64,000 nucleotides of DNA from a virus: positions 1 to 64,000 of the IMG/VR virus record IMGVR_UViG_3300032242_001752; one strand, 5' to 3'. Shown in pieces: positions 1 through 18,147 of this stretch. Position 1 is the stretch's first letter. Each line of letters opens with the position of its first letter. The position numbers and the translations under genes were made by a program. The notes beneath the pieces were generated by a model. The model searched no databases. It had not been told where the DNA came from and saw only the letters and a program-made list of their open reading frames with translations.

Positions 1-74
1 CCCAACTCAACAAAACGCTACAAACAACTTCGTTGTTTGTTTTAAGGGCTTTTGTAGCGTTTTGTTGAGTCGGG
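1..74. repeat. Long hairpin element with CCAACTCAACAA-type ends, copy 1
   Basis: 1-24 pairs with 51-74 (one mismatch); internal alternative hairpin ACAAACAAC-TTC-GTTGTTTGT. Confidence 0.9.
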
Positions 75-79
75 CGTGT

Positions 80-98
80 CGTTATCAAATTGTTATAA
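80..98. promoter_or_regulatory. 19-bp box CGTTATCAWWYGTTATAA-type (copy 1 of 9)
   Basis: CGTTATCAAATTGTTATAA; same motif at 959, 987(rc), 2064, 2093, 2121(rc), 3306, 3328, 3365. Confidence 0.85.
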
Positions 99-114
99 AC
101 TCACCCCCGAGGGG

Positions 115-144
115 GCGAGGAGGGCCTGGGCAAACCCTCCTCGC
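115..144 (-). terminator. GC-rich hairpin after cassette 1 genes
   Basis: GCGAGGAGGG/CCCTCCTCGC 10-bp stem just 3' of the stop at 152; no clear U-tract. Confidence 0.55.
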
Positions 145-151
145 TGTTCAA

Positions 152-448
152 TCAAACTATTGTGATAAGTGAAACTGGTGTGTCTTGTTCAGTGCAATAC
201 TGAAGTTTACCCCAAGGTGTTTCCACGAAGAAGTAATAGCCCTGACAGTCTAATTCGTGAAACGCTTTGAATAGCCCAGATAAGCGTGGATTATTTGGAG
301 GTGATTGACAAGCGCCCAGAAGTTCGATTTTGACTGGCTCAACTAGGAACTCGTCCTCTAAATACCTAAGTATAGCCATTACATAACCGTTCCATAGTTC
401 GCCATCGGCTCCTGTGGTGAGGTGTTGCTCTGTGATTCTAATTTCCAT
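152..448 (-). CDS. hypothetical (probably early) protein
   Basis: 98-aa ORF, RBS AAAGGAAA upstream. Confidence 0.8.
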   Translation of the reverse strand: MEIRITEQHLTTGADGELWNGYVMAILRYLEDEFLVEPVKIELLGACQSPPNNPRLSGLFKAFHELDCQGYYFFVETPWGKLQYCTEQDTPVSLITIV

Positions 449-470
449 TTTTCGTTTCCTTTGGTTAGAA

Positions 471-500
471 GTGAGCCAGTTTTAGGACATGGCTCAGGTC
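471..500 (-). ncRNA. intergenic H-type pseudoknot motif, copy 1
   Basis: GAC-C-TGAGCCA-T-GTC-CTAAAAC-TGGCTCA; covaries with 3 other copies. Confidence 0.7.
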
Positions 501-506
501 GCAAGG

Positions 507-857
507 TTATCTAGGGCTAATTGTCCCAGATTCTACACCCTTGATAAATTCACCAAGAGTGGAGTGGATTAGCACGATTTCGGCTAGTGTGAACTGACCA
601 CGCAATAACTCCGTGTTAGTGTATAGCGTTTCACCATAAAGACCAGTTAGGTAAACCCAAACATCTCGGTCAATGTGGATGGCGTGCTTGCCCTCGTTGC
701 CGTGCCAAACAGACACAGACACAAGGTCGGTTGTGTGAGGACTTACTACATCCTCGCCAGCGATGTTGTTGGTAGAGATTTCGCCCTTTACCCAAGTTTC
801 GTGATTCTCAACTGGTTCGGGTTTCACCTCAACCTTGATTTGGTGCTTAGTGTTCAT
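507..857 (-). CDS. hypothetical (probably early) protein
   Basis: 116-aa ORF, RBS TAGGAG. Confidence 0.8.
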   Translation of the reverse strand: MNTKHQIKVEVKPEPVENHETWVKGEISTNNIAGEDVVSPHTTDLVSVSVWHGNEGKHAIHIDRDVWVYLTGLYGETLYTNTELLRGQFTLAEIVLIHSTLGEFIKGVESGTISPR

Positions 858-926
858 ACTGAACTCCTAAATAAGTGTAAAGACTGCCCAGATAACTTTT
901 GTTCTCTCTCGTTCCTTACAAAAACT

Positions 927-977
927 AATCTAGCCTATTACACACATACCCCCCCTGTCGTTATCATTTTGTTATAA
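927..977 (-). promoter_or_regulatory. cassette promoter: 19-bp box-N7-GGGTATG-N12-TAGATT
   Basis: identical spacing in three cassettes. Confidence 0.75.
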
Positions 978-1005
978 ATCTCTGCTTTATAACGATTTGA
1001 TAACG
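959..1005. repeat. inverted pair of 19-bp boxes with 9-nt spacer
   Basis: 959-977 and 987-1005(rc); same geometry at 2093-2139. Confidence 0.85.
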
Positions 1006-1007
1006 AA

Positions 1008-1099
1008 CCAACTCAACAAAAGCTAATGGCAGCAAGCTGCCTATTAGCTTTATAATACCTAGGCTATATAATTATAGCCAGGTATTATTGTTGAGTTGG
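1008..1099. repeat. T-shaped (three-way) palindromic element, copy 2
   Basis: outer stem CCAACTCAACAA/TTGTTGAGTTGG; arm hairpins 1020-1050 and 1053-1087. Confidence 0.9.
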
Positions 1100-1171
1100 C
1101 GCACCTCTGCCCCTCTGCTCCCGAGCACGCCAAAACCAGCCCCCATTGCTGGGGACTGGCTGGCTGGTTGC

Positions 1172-1417
1172 TTACATCACTTTGTGTTCGCAATCACACT
1201 TTGCATCGTGGTCGCGACCCAGTGAACCTTCGGGCAAGTCTAGACTACGCTCCAACAGGTCTAAGCCTGTCCAGAATGACTCACGCCAGCCTGGGCTGTC
1301 GTCCCAGTCCTGTTGGTGATAATAGTCCAGAGCCGTAGTTATCTTGTCCACTAACTGAGTAGCAGTCTTTGTGATAGCGTGGTTTTGTAGGGTTACCCAG
1401 ATTTGTTCTTCGAACAT
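1172..1417 (-). CDS. hypothetical (probably early) protein
   Basis: 81-aa ORF, RBS AAAGGAAA; C-terminal HDAKCDCEH. Confidence 0.8.
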   Translation of the reverse strand: MFEEQIWVTLQNHAITKTATQLVDKITTALDYYHQQDWDDSPGWRESFWTGLDLLERSLDLPEGSLGRDHDAKCDCEHKVM

Positions 1418-1442
1418 TTTATTTCCTTTTCTTGTTTGTAGG

Positions 1443-1473
1443 GTGAGCCAGTTTAGACACTTGGCTCAGGTGT
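1443..1473 (-). ncRNA. intergenic H-type pseudoknot motif, copy 2
   Basis: ACAC-C-TGAGCCA-A-GTGT-CTAAAC-TGGCTCA. Confidence 0.7.
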
Positions 1474-1481
1474 TGGTTTTA

Positions 1482-1961
1482 CTAGTTGATTAGTCCTAGT
1501 TCGCGGTGCTCAAACTCAACTTCAAAGGCACTTGCTTTTAGACACTTGCCGTCAGTTAGTTCGTGGTCGCAAACTCCGTCAAAGCAGTCGGACTCTTGCG
1601 TGAATACCACAAAGGTATCTGCTAAGTGGCAACGCTGAGCAGTCCACGTGCTAGGACCATAAAGGTCGTATTCCATAGCCGTCAAAAATACGCCGTCGTG
1701 TTCGCCGTTAGTTGCGTATGTGATGCCGTCCATGTCGCAAGAGTCAAAGAATGACTGAATGCTCGCAAAGTAGTTGCCGAATGCTTCCCAGTATTCAACT
1801 CGTTTGATGTCAGTTCCTGATGTCATACCACGCCAAGTTTGCTGACGTTCATTGACATCTTTCCTGCTATACCAATACTTGACCAGTTCCAAAGGCGTGT
1901 CAAGCGTATAAGTGTAATCGCTAGACTCAACGGAACTGACTAACAAAGGATTTGTATCCAT
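1482..1961 (-). CDS. hypothetical (probably early) protein
   Basis: 159-aa acidic ORF downstream of the cassette promoter. Confidence 0.8.
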   Translation of the reverse strand: MDTNPLLVSSVESSDYTYTLDTPLELVKYWYSRKDVNERQQTWRGMTSGTDIKRVEYWEAFGNYFASIQSFFDSCDMDGITYATNGEHDGVFLTAMEYDLYGPSTWTAQRCHLADTFVVFTQESDCFDGVCDHELTDGKCLKASAFEVEFEHRELGLIN

Positions 1962-2031
1962 TGCCCGTTCTCTCTGCTAGGGAACTACTTGCCTAGACAC
2001 TTTATCTAGGTCCCGTTTCCCTAACAAGATA

Positions 2032-2082
2032 AGACTATGCTATTTTAGGCATACCCTATCTCTCGTTATCAATTCGTTATAA
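2032..2082 (-). promoter_or_regulatory. cassette promoter: 19-bp box-N7-GGGTATG-N12-TAGTCT
   Basis: same spacing as 927-977 and 3274-3324. Confidence 0.75.
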
Positions 2083-2092
2083 TCTTTTTTTT

Positions 2093-2139
2093 CGTTATCA
2101 TTTCGTTATAAACTCTCGCTTTATAACAATTTGATAACG
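2093..2139. repeat. inverted pair of 19-bp boxes with 9-nt spacer
   Basis: 2093-2111 and 2121-2139(rc). Confidence 0.85.
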
Positions 2140-2142
2140 GCC

Positions 2143-2248
2143 CCAACTCAACAAAACTATTGGCAAAAAGGCCTGACGGCCTTTTAGCCTAATAGTTTTA
2201 GCCCTATACTATGCTAAAGCATATAGTATACGGGCTTTGTTGAGTTGG
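2143..2248. repeat. T-shaped (three-way) palindromic element, copy 3
   Basis: same 12-bp outer stem; two internal hairpins of largely different sequence. Confidence 0.9.
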
Positions 2249-2312
2249 CGCGATCTCTAGGCTGGCTGTGTCCCCGAAGGGAGGGAGGCTGGTTTCCCAG
2301 CCCCCCAGTTGT

Positions 2313-2531
2313 TTATTCTACTTCGTCTAATGCCCACGAAGTAAGTTTGATGTTTGTAATCTGTCTAGACGAATCTAGGCAGGTTTGACACAGGTGAGCG
2401 CCTTCATTTTCCACAGGGATCCACTGAGCCATGTGAGCCTTTGGAAGTGTAACAAAGACGCTAACAACTTTAGCGAAGTGTGTTGCCGGTGTTTCGGTTG
2501 ATGTTTCTAGGCATTTAGCACATAGATTCAT
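2313..2531 (-). CDS. small Zn-binding hypothetical protein
   Basis: CAKC...CQTC; start moved to ATG 2531 because the upstream GTG lies inside the pseudoknot motif. Confidence 0.7.
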   Translation of the reverse strand: MNLCAKCLETSTETPATHFAKVVSVFVTLPKAHMAQWIPVENEGAHLCQTCLDSSRQITNIKLTSWALDEVE

Positions 2532-2555
2532 TTCATTACTTTCTTGTTTGAGTGA

Positions 2556-2586
2556 GTGAGTCAGTTTATCCACTTGACTCAGGTGG
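2556..2586 (-). ncRNA. intergenic H-type pseudoknot motif, copy 3
   Basis: CCAC-C-TGAGTCA-A-GTGG-ATAAAC-TGACTCA; compensatory changes in both stems. Confidence 0.7.
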
Positions 2587-2591
2587 TATTG

Positions 2592-2771
2592 CTAGTGGCT
2601 AAATACGCTATGTGTTTCGTGCTTGCCACGTGGTCTTACAAGCATTAGCACCTTGTAAGTTTTGGTGTTGTTGATGTAGCAGTCAGGGTTGTCGCATTTC
2701 CAACAACCCGCTAAACCCTTGCCCATAAAGTAATCAAAGGTCTTGTTGTATAACTTGCAGTAAGTAGTCAT
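2592..2771 (-). CDS. 59-aa Cys-containing hypothetical protein (not in ORF track)
   Basis: MTTYCKLYNK...CWKCDNPDC...; TAATG overlap with upstream ORF. Confidence 0.6.
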   Translation of the reverse strand: MTTYCKLYNKTFDYFMGKGLAGCWKCDNPDCYINNTKTYKVLMLVRPRGKHETHSVFSH

Positions 2772-2857
2772 TACTTACCCGCTTTCTGCCATAGTCGCCC
2801 AATGTAGAAAGCGATAATCATTTCAAGTAAGTCTTGCCCATTGAATATGTGAATCAC
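2771..2857 (-). CDS. 28-aa microprotein (not in ORF track)
   Basis: GTG start after GAAAGG RBS: MIHIFNGQDLLEMIIAFYIGRLWQKAGK. Confidence 0.55.
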   Translation of the reverse strand: MIHIFNGQDLLEMIIAFYIGRLWQKAGK

Positions 2858-2880
2858 TTTGTTGCCTTTCTATTTGTAGG

Positions 2881-2910
2881 GTGGCAGTTTTGGACGGGTC
2901 TGCCAACCGT
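2881..2910 (-). ncRNA. intergenic H-type pseudoknot motif, copy 4 (diverged)
   Basis: ACGG-T-TGGCAG-AC-CCGT-CCAAAA-CTGCCA. Confidence 0.6.
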
Positions 2911-2922
2911 GTTTGTTGCGAA

Positions 2923-3201
2923 CTAGATAGATGCTAAGTCAGCGACTACCCTAGCGTTTACCCTTGCCCAAAACTCAGCGCAGGTAATTTGGAATGGTTT
3001 GCCAAGTTCCAAAGCCGAGACTGTGGTGGCGTATAGTGTTTCCCAGCGTGCCATTTCTAGTTCGTATTCTTGAACCATAAACGCATCGTTGCTCGTAGCC
3101 TTGACTGTGGCTAGTGCTTCACTAGCCTTGTCGTAAGCATCACGAATTACACTAACAAGGTCTAACCCTGTCCTGTAATCCGTCTCTAAAACAATTTCCA
3201 T
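2923..3201 (-). CDS. hypothetical (probably early) protein
   Basis: ATG 3201 after GGAGAG; helical 92-aa protein. Confidence 0.75.
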   Translation of the reverse strand: MEIVLETDYRTGLDLVSVIRDAYDKASEALATVKATSNDAFMVQEYELEMARWETLYATTVSALELGKPFQITCAEFWARVNARVVADLASI

Positions 3202-3273
3202 TGCTCTCTCCAATTACCAAGCAACTCTCGCCTAAGCCCTTTTGTCTTAGTGTCTTGTTTGCCTGATAAAGCC

Positions 3274-3383
3274 AAACTATCAGTTTCACCACATACCCCA
3301 TTCGTCGTTATCAATTCGTTATAATGCCGTTATCATTTTGTTATCTAAGGGGGGTAGGGTTAATCGTTATCAAATCGTTATAA
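3274..3383 (-). promoter_or_regulatory. cassette promoter with three 19-bp boxes (3306, 3328, 3365)
   Basis: box-N7-GGGTATG-N12-TAGTTT. Confidence 0.75.
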
Positions 3384-3509
3384 TCCACCAGGCCACAGAT
3401 AGGATTTTTTGATTTAAATAGTCAGGCAGTAGCCTAAATGCGGGATATGCATTTTCAATTAAATATTTGATTAGGTGCGGGATTGGCCGCATTGGCTGCA
3501 TAGCTTATT

Positions 3510-3537
3510 TTGCAATGTCAGGGGTCTGTGCTATAAT
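3510..3537 (+). promoter_or_regulatory. sigmaA-type rightward promoter
   Basis: TTGCAA-N16-TATAAT with extended -10 TG. Confidence 0.6.
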
Positions 3538-3587
3538 TCCGGAAGCTTACGGTGCGGTTTCCCTGGTTTTAATACATAATGGATAAC

Positions 3588-3764
3588 ATGGAACCTGATA
3601 AGAACCAATTTGGTAGAATCAAGGACAAGGTTGTAAGCTTCCTTAAGTTTAAAGATAACAAGATAGCTGAGACTACGCCGTTTGGCCCTATGAGCAAGTA
3701 CCAAGAGAATCCTGAGAACAGGATTATACACAAGTCTGTGCGAGAGGACCGCAATGAGCGATGA
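3588..3764 (+). CDS. small protein, N-terminal MEPDKNQF
   Basis: ORF track (second ATG chosen); first of a chain of overlapping ORFs. Confidence 0.65.
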   Translation: MEPDKNQFGRIKDKVVSFLKFKDNKIAETTPFGPMSKYQENPENRIIHKSVREDRNER

Positions 3765-4044
3765 GCACGTGCACGTCATAACAGACTGTAAAGCTTGTGG
3801 AATAAAGCGGTTTGCAGAAGGAAAGCCGCGCGAGTCTCACTCAGTCATCCCAGTTGAAAAGGGAATTAGTGAAGTTCCAGCAACATATACCTTCTTAGCC
3901 GAGAGCTCACACGAATTAAATAACCACAAGCAAGATATGATACATAGAGTGTTTAGACAGACGAAAGGCAAGCCTTTCTTTAACCCTATGAACTCTAGAA
4001 TAGTAAACTTCAATCACGGCAAGGACCACAATGGAACCGAGTAA
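3754..4044 (+). CDS. hypothetical protein (CxxC)
   Basis: 96 aa, coupled to neighbours. Confidence 0.7.
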   Translation: MSDEHVHVITDCKACGIKRFAEGKPRESHSVIPVEKGISEVPATYTFLAESSHELNNHKQDMIHRVFRQTKGKPFFNPMNSRIVNFNHGKDHNGTE

Positions 4045-4507: not shown

Positions 4508-4827
4508 TGAGCAACGGAAGCAAAAAGACTAGAGCTGCGAGCAAGACTGGTAGAACAGCCCACTTTGAGGCTGGAGTCAGTGGTGGCCGCGAGTATTGGG
4601 ATAACAGAGACAATGGTCCTCACAAAAAGACCTATGAAGTGTCTAAGAGAGACACTCTTCCTTTTGGCCCTAAAGAGCAGAAGGCAACAAAACTAGGCTG
4701 GCACATGAAGACCGGTAAGTACCCTACACACCACCCATCTATGGAATATGATGAGCGTTGTTCTAAGTGTGAAGCTTTAGACAGTACTTTTGACCATCCT
4801 AATGGCCGTAAGATAACTGACGACTAA
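4507..4827 (+). CDS. hypothetical protein (CxxC)
   Basis: TAATG overlap. Confidence 0.75.
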   Translation: MSNGSKKTRAASKTGRTAHFEAGVSGGREYWDNRDNGPHKKTYEVSKRDTLPFGPKEQKATKLGWHMKTGKYPTHHPSMEYDERCSKCEALDSTFDHPNGRKITDD

Positions 4828-5279
4828 TGAAGCCACGCGATAGCCAGCTACCAGAAAAACCTAAGCACGACCACCCGTGGAAGCGTATTGAATGGGGTAA
4901 CGTTGCTCGCAGCAATGACACTGAAGGTAATAAGAGTGGATTTAAAAGCTTAGCTGGGGCAAAAGCAAAAGCCCGCAAGTGGCTAGAGGCTTCCGGATTA
5001 AATAGGCTACACGCACCAAAAGTAGCCGGAGCTGACCACGTTAATATTAAAATTACTAAAGATACCAATGGTGACCACAATATTGAATATCAAAATAAAT
5101 ATTGTGAAGCCTGCGCACCTGAGCGTATCCATACCATTAGCTCTACTCCTATCGAAAGTTGGAAAACAATAGCAGAAGAAGCAGCTGCCGGTAGAGATGT
5201 GCGTCCAGGCGGACACAGAAAATATGCAGTCCCAGCTAACCCAACTGAGACTCCGCCTCCTCATAGGATGGACGCGTAA
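4827..5279 (+). CDS. hypothetical protein, N-terminal MKPRDSQL
   Basis: TAATG overlap; CEAC motif. Confidence 0.75.
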   Translation: MKPRDSQLPEKPKHDHPWKRIEWGNVARSNDTEGNKSGFKSLAGAKAKARKWLEASGLNRLHAPKVAGADHVNIKITKDTNGDHNIEYQNKYCEACAPERIHTISSTPIESWKTIAEEAAAGRDVRPGGHRKYAVPANPTETPPPHRMDA

Positions 5280-17058: not shown

Positions 17059-18147
17059 ATGGCATCAGGTATTACGGGTACCGGCAATCTAGCTGCCGCC
17101 CCAACCTCGTACTCAGGTACAAACACCCAGCTAACTCAGGCGATTCAGCAAATCTGGTCAAAGGAAATCCTTTTCCAGGCTATGCCGATTCTTCGCTTCG
17201 AGCAGTTCGCAGTTAAGAAGACAGAACTTGGTGTCGCACCGGGTCTTCAGATTAACTTCCTGCGTTACAACAACCTCGGATTTGCTTCGGCACTTGTTGA
17301 AGGTGTACGTATGCAGACCAACGCTCTGACTGCACAGCAGTTCTCAATCACCGTTTCAGAGCACGGATACGCACTTGCAGTTTCAGAGCTATTGCTAAAC
17401 GCATCTTTCGATGACGTTATGGCATCTGCTTCTCGTCTGCTTGGTCGTAACATGGCCCTTTACCTAGACAAGCTAAGCCGCGACACCCTTTACGGTGCGA
17501 CTTCTCAGGTTTGGGGTGAAGACCGTACCAACATGACCGCTATCACTAACGGTACTGGTAACTTCAACCAGTACGGTTACGGTACTAACGGTTCAAGCAA
17601 CGCTGGTATGACAGGTAACTACTTCTTGACTCCACGTACCGTTAAGGACGTAGTAGAGAACCTAGCGACCAAGAACATTCCAAGGCTTGGAGAAACTTAC
17701 GTTGCCTTCGTTCACCCTCACCAGTCACGTCGTCTACGCGACACTGCTGAGTTCATCGAAGTAACTAAGTACGCTGCTCCTGGTAACTTCATGCTAGGTG
17801 AAATCGGTCGTCTATACGACACCGTATTCATCGAGACTACTCAGGTCCGTAAGGTCACCAACGGTGCAGGTACTAACTGGACAGTTGACACAGCGGTTTC
17901 TAACCCAGTTCCAGCTGCTGGTGGAGGTTATGTAAGCCCTTCTGAGTGGACTGGTAACGGTTCATCTGACCGCTACGACGCTATCTTCATTGGAGATAAC
18001 GCATTCGGTCACGCTATTTCACTTCCTGTTGAGCTACGTGACGGTGGTATTCTAGACTTCGGTCGTGAACACGCACTAGCATGGTACTCAATCTTCGGTC
18101 TAGGTCTAATCACTGACCAGGCTGTGATTGTAGCTTCAACCAACTAA
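17059..18147 (+). CDS. major capsid protein (N4-gp56-like family)
   Basis: LxEG, VHP, GEIGRLY..F.ET, DFGR motifs; highest codon bias. Confidence 0.92.
   Translation: MASGITGTGNLAAAPTSYSGTNTQLTQAIQQIWSKEILFQAMPILRFEQFAVKKTELGVAPGLQINFLRYNNLGFASALVEGVRMQTNALTAQQFSITVSEHGYALAVSELLLNASFDDVMASASRLLGRNMALYLDKLSRDTLYGATSQVWGEDRTNMTAITNGTGNFNQYGYGTNGSSNAGMTGNYFLTPRTVKDVVENLATKNIPRLGETYVAFVHPHQSRRLRDTAEFIEVTKYAAPGNFMLGEIGRLYDTVFIETTQVRKVTNGAGTNWTVDTAVSNPVPAAGGGYVSPSEWTGNGSSDRYDAIFIGDNAFGHAISLPVELRDGGILDFGREHALAWYSIFGLGLITDQAVIVASTN

Follow-up and report, generated by a model that had tools for sequence, protein, structure and literature searches.

What do four pseudoknots of 29-30 nucleotides (nt) do between the early genes of an uncultured tailed phage? 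The phage is represented by IMG/VR virus record IMGVR_UViG_3300032242_001752, a single contig of 88,562 bp that is estimated to be 97% complete, and the window analyzed here is its first 64 kb. Within its early operons are four intercistronic spacers, 58-67 nt long, each bearing one compact H-type pseudoknot (hereafter, knot), which a first-pass annotation of the window had assigned to no family and had interpreted as 5′-to-3′ exonuclease roadblocks, processing signals or translational enhancers that protect the downstream cistrons. Judged by comparison with their relatives, the four elements are members of a large uncatalogued family of compact H-type pseudoknots that marks gene ends in phages, mobile elements and some bacterial chromosomes. 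As to function, our answer is tentative: we favor the idea that the knot is a gene-end cap that is kept on the upstream fragment of the transcript and most likely shields its 3′ end.

All four knots lie on the minus strand, at 472-500 (PK1), 1444-1473 (PK2), 2557-2586 (PK3) and 2882-2910 (PK4), and the location, stems and topology that the first-pass annotation had given them were borne out. From 5′ to 3′ each consists of the 5′ strand of stem 1 (3-4 nt), a loop 1 of one pyrimidine, the 5′ strand of stem 2 (6-7 nt), a junction of 1-2 nt, the 3′ strand of stem 1, an A-rich loop 3 of 6-7 nt and the 3′ strand of stem 2. PK1, which like PK2 and PK3 belongs to class A, has stem 1 GAC/GTC (500-498 with 488-486), C497 as loop 1, stem 2 TGAGCCA/TGGCTCA (496-490 with 478-472), T489 as junction and loop 3 CTAAAAC (485-479). 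PK2 has the same stem 2 (3′ strand 1450-1444), with stem 1 ACAC/GTGT (5′ strand 1473-1470), C as loop 1, A as junction and loop 3 CTAAAC. In PK3, stem 1 is CCAC/GTGG (5′ strand 2586-2583), loop 1 is C, the junction A and loop 3 ATAAAC, and stem 2, TGAGTCA/TGACTCA (3′ strand 2563-2557), differs from that of PK1 and PK2 by a C-G to U-A swap. PK4, of class C, combines stem 1 ACGG/CCGT (5′ strand 2910-2907), loop 1 T, stem 2 TGGCAG/CTGCCA (3′ strand 2887-2882), junction AC and loop 3 CCAAAA. The window copies thus have the features found throughout the family: a stem 1 of 3-4 bp, free and covarying in sequence, with C-G innermost in class A/B and G-C in class C, a pyrimidine loop 1, a stem 2 of 6-7 bp of the form UG...CA, a loop 3 NNAAA(C/A), and a position on the strand of the flanking genes at least 5 nt past a stop codon.

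How far does the window itself support the fold? The pattern formed by stem 2 and loop 3 is expected there 0.10 times by chance and was found three times, as PK1 to PK3 and nowhere else. A covariance model (CM) that describes stem 2 only, and whose seed alignment contained all four window copies so that their scores are not independent, gave 50.3 bits for PK1, 50.9 for PK2, 49.4 for PK3 and 25.3 (E 6e-5) for PK4, the model being almost wholly class A. The nested part of the fold, stem 2, has a predicted energy of −7.1 to −11.6 kcal/mol (PK1, −10.3 with z −3.2; PK2, −11.6 with z −3.4). An alternative proposed by the folding program, in which stem 2 is extended by G-C and U-A pairs, has no support from sequence variation, and stem 1 has. 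No further convincing copy occurs in the whole 88,562-bp genome, where a relaxed pseudoknot descriptor produced 200 matches relative to about 115 in shuffled sequence; this descriptor is non-specific and yields no further copies, and the case consequently rests on comparison with relatives.

An exact scan of IMG/VR for TGAGYCA-N7-AAAC-TGRCTCA returned 63 loci. A complementary stem 1, in many different sequences, is present in 60 of them; among these, 58 have C-G or U-A as the free Y/R pair of stem 2, two have U.G and none has C.A. With the stem-2 CM, these loci yielded additional copies, as many as six in one contig, including a 6-bp class (TGAGCA/TGCTCA) that alone adds at least 119 IMG/VR stretches. 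About 20 distinct relatives are of the PK4 type (TGGCAG/CTGCCA, with U as loop 1 and G-C as inner pair), and their stem 1 varies among TGGG/CCCA, GCGG/CCGC, CTGG/CCAG, TCAG/CTGA, GGAG/CTCC and others. Across 190 distinct viral instances stem 1 takes the form of 33 different 4-mers, each of them complemented, and a G is never found as the junction base; around this variable stem 1, the sequence of stem 2, of loop 1 (C) and of loop 3 (AAAC) is almost fixed. Covariation was measured on 150 distinct class-B sequences, with no filter on the outer three pairs of stem 1. Of the two free inner pairs, each represented by four or more pair types, one is formed in 149 and the other in 148 of the 150; the outermost pair is formed in 63%. 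The stem-1 covariation score is 0.295 (0.064 ± 0.007 when shuffled), a value reached by none of 500 shuffles, and sliding the 3′ partner by 1-3 columns lowers pairing to 23-38%. A descriptor with stem 2 left free had 295 matches in the fetched loci, which we number with the prefix L, and two in block-shuffled copies. It also picks up compensated variants of stem 2 (among them TAAGCA/TGCTTA, TGGACA/TGTCCA, TAGACA/TGTCTA, TGAACA/TGTTCA, TGGGTA/TACCCA and TGGGCCA/TGGCCCA). Half-motifs never occur alone.

Four related phage contigs (L030, L245, L206 and L185), in which the early genes have 70-86% nucleotide identity, carry orthologous knots with compensated differences. Stem 1 of PK4, ACGG/CCGT here, is GCGG/CCGC in the orthologs of L245 and L186; the 7-bp stem 2 of PK2 has 6 bp in its L030 ortholog; and copies of class A and class C occupy equivalent orthologous positions. 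In all, then, the proposal of covarying H-type pseudoknots at the level of RNA holds far beyond the four copies from which it was made, and the 29-nt fold is supported about as well as comparative analysis allows.

The knot is present in about 200 IMG/VR phage contigs and in at least 118 bacterial contigs, the latter from a scan of one genome per prokaryotic species. Many of these belong to Candidatus Saccharibacteria, and others to Anaerolineae, Omnitrophota, Actinomycetes, Lactobacillaceae, Bacteroidia, Desulfobacterota, Polynucleobacter, a Leptolyngbyaceae cyanobacterium and more. Three cultured phages have one copy each, always in this gene-end position: Paracoccus phage ParKuw1; Mycobacterium phage Labelle, whose gene 85 ends 5 nt ahead of the knot; and cyanophage S-RIM4, where about 10 nt separate gene 084 from it. 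No Rfam 15 model (including those for preQ1-I, pistol, hammerhead, twister and HDV-like RNAs) matched the knots or their relatives, either at the gathering score over the whole window or at E ≤ 10 over positions 1-4000, and the knots in 24 related loci were likewise without a family match; the elements therefore remain without an assigned family, as first reported. A full-text literature search, incomplete for subscription journals, revealed no described phage or bacterial knot of this kind, although a prior description is possible. A fold with strong covariation that occurs in hundreds of phages, in mobile elements and in unrelated bacterial phyla, yet is missing from Rfam and from searchable papers, in our opinion merits both a family entry and experiment.

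To what are the knots anchored? They have the orientation of their flanking open reading frames (ORFs), with 77 instances in which both neighbors are on the strand of the knot and few in which they are opposite, which argues that the element acts in RNA. In 179 of the 190 viral instances, the 90 nt upstream of the knot contain the end of an ORF that has 40 codons or more. The distance from its stop codon to stem 1 is 5 nt in 37 instances, 6 nt in 22, 7 nt in 8, 8 nt in 15 and 9 nt in 13, that is, 5-9 nt in 95 of the 190 and less than 5 nt in only four; spacers of 10-40 nt are common as well. In the window the distances are 6, 5, 5 and 12 nt for PK1 to PK4, with PK2 following a TAG-TAA tandem. 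TAA is strongly preferred as the stop codon upstream of knots (110/147). Since about 5 nt is the reach of the ribosomal helicase past the A-site codon, a spacer of that length should allow a terminating ribosome to leave the knot folded. The genes that end in this way are diverse (DUF932 in 22 of 138, SSB in about 8 and Hsp20 in 5, counts that carry no enrichment statistics), the flanking genes are mutually unrelated and no neighboring protein gene is shared.

The downstream side is far less constant. The first-pass annotation had tied each knot to an internal ribosome-binding site, and in the window the next start codon does follow PK1 to PK4 at 23, 26, 25 and 24 nt; over the family, however, a downstream start is present in only 123 of the 190 instances, at a broad 15-40 nt, in contrast to the sharp 5-nt minimum at the upstream stop. 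A Shine-Dalgarno (SD)-like motif with a start follows only about 45% of 301 distinct relatives, and the other followers are tRNAs, hammerheads, DUF2800 RNA, U-tracts and a promoter. Neither the link to an internal ribosome-binding site nor anchoring to the downstream start can accordingly be general, and with so many knots lacking an SD motif or start, translational enhancement cannot be their common function. G is rare behind the knot, making up 1-6% of nt 1 to 6 and 9-12% of nt 7 to 9, and the stretch that follows is less structured than the sequence farther on. No promoter signal (−35/−10) or other conservation at a fixed position exists upstream of the knots. The only invariant neighbor is the upstream end, and the knot is placed as near the stop codon as possible. 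One minor association concerns words resembling DnaA boxes (TTATCCACA / TGTGGATAA), which occur within 120 nt after 11 of the 301 knots (about 2.7 expected), often behind AAAATTTT and a GC hairpin (the loci include L171, L134, L164, L165, L076, L318, L356 and the second copy of L001); here, the gene closed by the knot may be one that lies ahead of a replication origin.

The surroundings of the knots provide the chief evidence on their function. A tRNA on the same strand starts 3-13 nt after the knot in 22 of the 301 instances, and in none of the 301 is there a tRNA within 150 nt upstream. Complete type III hammerheads begin 0-10 nt after the knot in L273 (twice), L019, L067 and L351, with the cut site 5-17 nt after the knot, and no knot has a hammerhead core within 100 nt upstream; in L273 the arrangement ORF-stop-knot-hammerhead-SD-ATG is repeated as tandem cassettes. 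DUF2800 RNA (RF02960, 140-157 bits) starts at the very base after the knot in L292 (5432-5592), L310, L360 and L364. Behind about 23 of the 301 knots (about 8%) the first 12 nt include 8 or more T; in L089 such a T-rich stretch is succeeded by a TTGACA-17-TATAAT promoter of the next gene. In the tRNA, hammerhead and T-rich cases, the upstream fragment would have its 3′ end no more than 20 nt beyond the knot, which would be severed from the downstream RNA.

Several recurrent arrangements were seen among these loci. One is a module of a DUF932 gene (phrog_1221, the same 22 of 138 upstream genes), a knot, 3-12 nt and a tRNA that ARAGORN left untyped (L069, L078, L087, L096, L099, L120, L136, L152, L159, L173, L174, L176 and others). 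Locus L024 has a pistol ribozyme at 2278-2340 on the plus strand (RF02679, 70 bits) and, at 4520-5165 on the same strand, a non-coding cluster of four knots, each ahead of a structured RNA; a tRNA-Lys starts 3 nt after one of these knots, and another follower resembles a long tRNA-like RNA with a normal T arm. In L034, L037, L047, L055, L066 and L182 the knot is enclosed in an extra GGGC/GCCC helix, and 3 nt after it comes an odd tRNA-like RNA that ARAGORN does not call. In a bacterial subfamily (L288, L297, L301, L321, L342, L353, L368, L369, L379, L280, L291, L347 and L282), a tiny conserved ORF, M(K/R)(R/K)(F/Y)x(V/I)PRxAHC(S/D)(E/D)GCxxxS, stops at a UGA within stem 2 of the knot. Variation at the third codon position shows that it is coding; it matched no Pfam or NCBIfam family, its neighbors vary (an ArsR regulator, a MerA-like oxidoreductase, a cytidylyltransferase), and in several of the loci inspected a terminator hairpin follows the knot.

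How might these observations be accounted for? In the explanation that we tentatively prefer, the knot would fold in the transcript just beyond the footprint of a ribosome terminating on the upstream gene; the polycistronic RNA would then be cut, or would end, downstream, and the knot would be retained on the upstream fragment as a small mechanical cap that stops 3′-to-5′ exonucleases, presumably PNPase, RNase II and RNase R, from entering the upstream coding region. In the window, the first gene of each two- to four-gene early operon would thereby gain a 3′ end of its own, the genes so protected being those at 2923-3201, 2592-2771, 1482-1961 and 507-857, and the last gene of each operon would rely on its terminator hairpin. 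The explanation builds on the fold with its covariation, spread and strand, and on its position relative to stop codons and cutting sites; from these we infer the block to exonucleases, its direction, and the cutting of the window transcripts in the G-poor spacer behind each knot (or their decay up to the knot). Bacterial 3′ exonucleases usually enter at a naked 3′ end, such as a hammerhead or RNase P would leave, and, as any adjacent device that cuts or ends the RNA is always 3′ of the knot, the knot would stay on the upstream fragment. Stem 2, on the 3′ side, is long and GC-richer (6-7 bp) and stem 1, on the 5′ side, is minimal (3-4 bp) and often A/U, an architecture that would be the reverse of that of knots built against unwinding from the 5′ side. 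Moreover, the range of hosts over many phyla implies that any partner of the knot should be near-universal, and 3′ exonucleases are near-universal. The roadblock or processing punctuation envisaged in the first-pass annotation was the right kind of idea, but protection of the upstream 3′ end suits the evidence better than protection of the downstream cistron: where a cutting element is adjacent, a knot that remains upstream after the cut cannot protect what lies beyond it from a 5′-3′ exonuclease.

A number of points nevertheless weigh against a 3′-end cap. No recognizable cutting element follows the four window copies. Stem 2, the nested part, contributes only −7 to −11.6 kcal/mol, and RNase R, as well as PNPase with helicases, can pass such structures. 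A purely mechanical cap leaves the near-fixed stem 2, loop 1 (C) and loop 3 (AAAC) unexplained. In the bacterial tiny-ORF subfamily, where the knot overlaps the stop codon and precedes a terminator hairpin, a cap is redundant, and the placement of knots before, and never after, tRNAs would also fit a role in the leader of the downstream RNA. Lastly, the nearest characterized knots, the coremin exoribonuclease-resistant RNAs (xrRNAs), are known only as blocks in the 5′-to-3′ direction, to Xrn1, to scanning ribosomes and to frameshifting ribosomes (PMC10520033, PMC10321173). We hold with somewhat less assurance again the more sweeping proposition that the knots are the prokaryotic counterpart of the viral xrRNAs, that is, a protein-independent block of about 29 nt to 3′-to-5′ exonucleases; combined with hammerheads, tRNAs and terminators, it would serve phages of many phyla as a modular end cap and set the lifetime of each cistron. 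Our literature searches found no dedicated compact RNA fold that resists 3′-to-5′ exonucleases.

Could the knots instead face the other way? The 5′-3′ roadblock, which is the main rival, and the translational enhancer are weaker than an upstream 3′-end cap, and we consider it unlikely that the knot stops RNase J, 5′-end-dependent scanning by RNase E, or sliding or scanning ribosomes that arrive from upstream, thereby protecting or insulating the downstream cistron. The attraction of this idea is the resemblance in sequence and layout to the coremin xrRNA (GUCCGAAGACGUUAAACUAC, PMC10520033), best seen in L105 (CGTCC-TGAGCAT-GACGTTAAAC-TGCTCA): both have a first stem of 3-4 bp, a pyrimidine loop 1 and a UAAAC spacer. 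The coremin 20-mer is a 3-4 bp hairpin with a pyrimidine as the first loop base and a GUUAAAC-containing spacer, past which the loop is thought to pair (PMC10520033), a pseudoknot confirmed by selected Watson-Crick variants (PMC10321173). Both coremin, which halts Xrn1 one base ahead of the hairpin, and its Watson-Crick variant are obstacles to Xrn1 and to scanning ribosomes and promote frameshifting, the screen that isolated the variant having been done in E. coli (PMC10321173). In addition, the knots sit at the exact distance of a frameshift stimulator from the A site, and each window knot is ahead of an SD motif and a start codon. Against this, hp2, a second hairpin directly behind the spacer, is strictly required for Xrn1 resistance in both types of coremin (PMC6546385, PMC10321173) and is not enriched after knots: such a hairpin follows 21 of 301 knots, as against 22 in shuffled sequence, and none of PK1 to PK3, PK4 being outside the test set. 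The cuts made by hammerheads and RNase P sever the knot from the RNA it would have to protect, and stem 1, the first to be met from the 5′ side, has just 3-4 bp and is often A/U-rich. A knot also occurs in a contig of Polynucleobacter, a betaproteobacterium, and betaproteobacteria, to our knowledge, generally lack RNase J.

The near-invariance of stem 2, loop 1 and loop 3 around a variable stem 1 is typical of a sequence-specific partner, and raises the question of whether the knot is a recognition site, either a processing signal for RNase P, E or III or the binding site of a conserved host protein, that directs a nearby cut. The stacked helix of 6-7 plus 3-4 bp has the length of a tRNA acceptor/T arm, and CCA is the commonest trinucleotide after the knot (29/190). 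We think this quite improbable, as a dedicated hammerhead or tRNA is supplied beside the knot where cutting is needed, so that the knot itself seems not to be the cutter; CCA follows only 15% of instances and no window copy; and the wide host range, the diverse upstream genes and the absence of a shared protein gene near the knots also speak against it. On the same count, a tRNA-like minihelix or RNase P substrate was rejected, because the CCA of its NCCA end is present in only those 15%. The sharp mode at 5-6 nt from the stop codon and the 5-nt floor, the preference for TAA (110/147) and the tiny bacterial ORF that ends on a UGA inside stem 2 are all features that would suit a knot that touches the entry channel of the ribosome at the stop codon and tunes termination, recycling, coupling to the next cistron or rescue by transfer-messenger RNA. 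This, too, has a low probability in our estimation: some knots, between the non-coding RNAs of L024, have no preceding ORF, the common spacers of 10-40 nt (12 nt for PK4) do not agree with a modulator of termination, and we know of no mechanism by which a downstream knot acts on bacterial termination. That the knot is a new small self-cleaving ribozyme is hardly credible, even though it has a conserved core and shares neighborhoods with hammerhead and pistol ribozymes, of the sort in which new ribozyme classes have previously been found; a complete hammerhead directly behind it in several loci would be redundant, and nearly every base of its roughly 29 nt is in a helix or short loop, with no match to a ribozyme family. 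Just as remote is a ligand riboswitch of preQ1-I-like size, whose aptamers the size and H-type topology recall, or an element of DNA such as a promoter or a protein-binding palindrome, of which the 3′ half of the knot may give a hint through a vague likeness to promoter cores of single-subunit RNA polymerases. The unrelated flanking genes, the tRNA and ribozyme followers and the lack of an Rfam match are at odds with both, and the covariation of stem 1 and the strict co-orientation with genes point to RNA. The promoter was dropped, given that the genome encodes no T7-type RNA polymerase (PF00940), half-motifs do not stand alone, no −35/−10 signal lies upstream and stem 1 covaries. We also discarded frameshifting, read-through and a selenocysteine insertion sequence (SECIS), since the four knots are preceded by no slippery heptamer and PK2 by tandem stops, separate SD motifs and starts lie downstream, and the UGA of stem 2 is inconsistently in frame. 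An intrinsic terminator was rejected likewise, for the window knots are followed by CTTCTAACC, CCCTACAAAC, CTCACTCAAAC and CCCTACAAAT rather than directly by a U-tract, and T-rich stretches follow only about 8% of the family.

The setting of the four knots is the early region at 1-3400, in which small minus-strand genes form three short operons; between these lie terminator-like hairpins, long inverted repeats and recurring boxes of the TTATAACGA type. The non-coding parts that flank each operon are identical in kind: a GC hairpin like that of a terminator, a long inverted repeat with CCAACTCAACAAA / TTTGTTGAGTTGG as its cap and, ahead of the first gene, two or three boxes of the form TTATAACGA-N-TGATAACGA. 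Knots come after internal genes of the operons and a terminator-like hairpin after the last gene of each. Upstream of PK1 is an ORF of 116 amino acids (507-857) whose TAA ends 6 nt before the knot and which has no Pfam match; the 159-amino-acid ORF upstream of PK2 (1482-1961) ends in a tandem TAG TAA, the TAA 5 nt before the knot, which argues against read-through. PK3 is preceded by an ORF of 59 amino acids (2592-2771), with its TAG ending 5 nt before the knot, and PK4 by the first ORF of its operon, of 92 amino acids (2923-3201, from the ATG at 3201), whose TAG ends 12 nt before the knot. All of these are on the minus strand, and a Pfam search found no family for any protein flanking the four knots. 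The spacers from knot to start are G-poor and A/C-rich with an AAGGA-like word: that of PK1 (449-471, to the ATG at 448 of the ORF at 152-448) has AAGGA as its Shine-Dalgarno-like word, and that of PK2 (1418-1443; CCCTACAAACAAGAAAAGGAAATAAA) leads to the ATG at 1417 of the ORF at 1172-1417. The G-poor spacers of PK3 (2532-2556) and PK4 (2858-2881) lead to the ATG at 2531 of the ORF at 2313-2531 and to a GTG at 2857, respectively, all again on the minus strand. The latter starts a micro-ORF of 28 codons (2771-2857, minus strand) that comes directly after PK4 and whose TAA overlaps the ATG of the next gene (TAATG).

Genes for a large terminase, portal, major head protein, tail sheath, helicase and family-A DNA polymerase identify the genome as that of a tailed phage. 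Its major head protein, encoded at 17059-18147 on the plus strand, has 68-69% identity to that of the Streptomyces phage BRock group, and the G+C content is only 43.6% despite this likeness. These nearest relatives of the capsid have no knot, and a blastn search of GenBank phages with the 4-kb early region as query returned no match.

If the proposed block to exonucleases is real, it would explain how the upstream pieces of long phage transcripts survive cutting by ribozymes or RNase P, it would extend the concept of xrRNAs from eukaryotic RNA viruses to bacteria, and it would provide a very small, host-independent stabilizer or insulator for the design of synthetic operons. The copies in the cultured phages Labelle, S-RIM4 and ParKuw1 make the knot directly testable.

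With which known systems, then, should the knots be compared? The ribozymes that punctuate operons of prophages and phages (Perreault et al., 2011, PMC3088659) are likewise small structured RNAs between short phage genes, thought to split long transcripts into messages the length of a gene. In several loci the knots are physically joined to type III hammerheads, but they have no ribozyme core or model match, and the knot appears to be the partner kept on the cut 3′ end. Repetitive extragenic palindromic (REP) hairpins, and the 3′ hairpins that RNase III leaves on T7 early mRNAs, are intercistronic stabilizers of the 3′ end. The knot would resemble these in presenting a 3′-side block to 3′ exonucleases and in uncoupling the stabilities of neighboring cistrons, but they are simple, long, lineage-specific hairpins, whereas the knot has 29 nt and a conserved core and is found across phyla. 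At the 3′ end of MALAT1 and MEN-β, a triple helix is followed by a tRNA-like RNA that is cut by RNase P, and there, as in the 22 knots that lie 3-13 nt before tRNAs, an A-rich structure, protective in the former, is directly upstream of a tRNA-shaped substrate; that system, however, is eukaryotic, far larger and holds its 3′ tail inside the triple helix, whereas the knot would leave a tail of 3-13 nt free. The luteoviral frameshifters and the pseudoknot in the gene 32 leader of T2 and T4 are likewise compact and of the H type, with a single base (loop 1) over a stem 2 of 6-7 bp and with a loop 3 rich in A. The class of geometry is alike, and the distance to the A site is that of frameshift stimulators; the knot of the window, however, has no slippery heptamer or overlapping −1 frame, and it occurs in multiple copies after unrelated genes.

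The closest known elements are coremin (xrRNA-C) and its Watson-Crick variant, xrRNA-WCC, from RNA viruses of plants and others (Dilweg et al.: PMC6546385, PMC10520033, PMC10321173). Like the knots, they have about 20-30 nt and a loop that pairs, or probably pairs, past a conserved (G)UUAAAC spacer, the adenines of which are proposed to dock in the minor groove of stem 1, and some members of the knot family carry GUCC...GACGUUAAACU letter for letter. The hairpin-1 loop of coremin is YGAD (4 nt) or YGNNAD (6 nt) (PMC10520033), which the window knots do not have; theirs consists of C/U, 6-7 paired nt and 1-2 further nt. The conserved 10-nt coremin spacer GUUAAACUAC has a partial counterpart in CUAAAAC-U, CUAAAC-U, AUAAAC-U and CCAAAA-C of the window knots, in which a UAAAC(U) core is common and the CUAC part is replaced by the stem-2 strand. 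The knots thus differ from coremin in a loop of 9-10 nt, a full Watson-Crick stem 2 of 6-7 bp and a stem 1 free in sequence; they have no obligatory hp2, their hosts are bacteria and phages, and their context points to protection of the upstream side.

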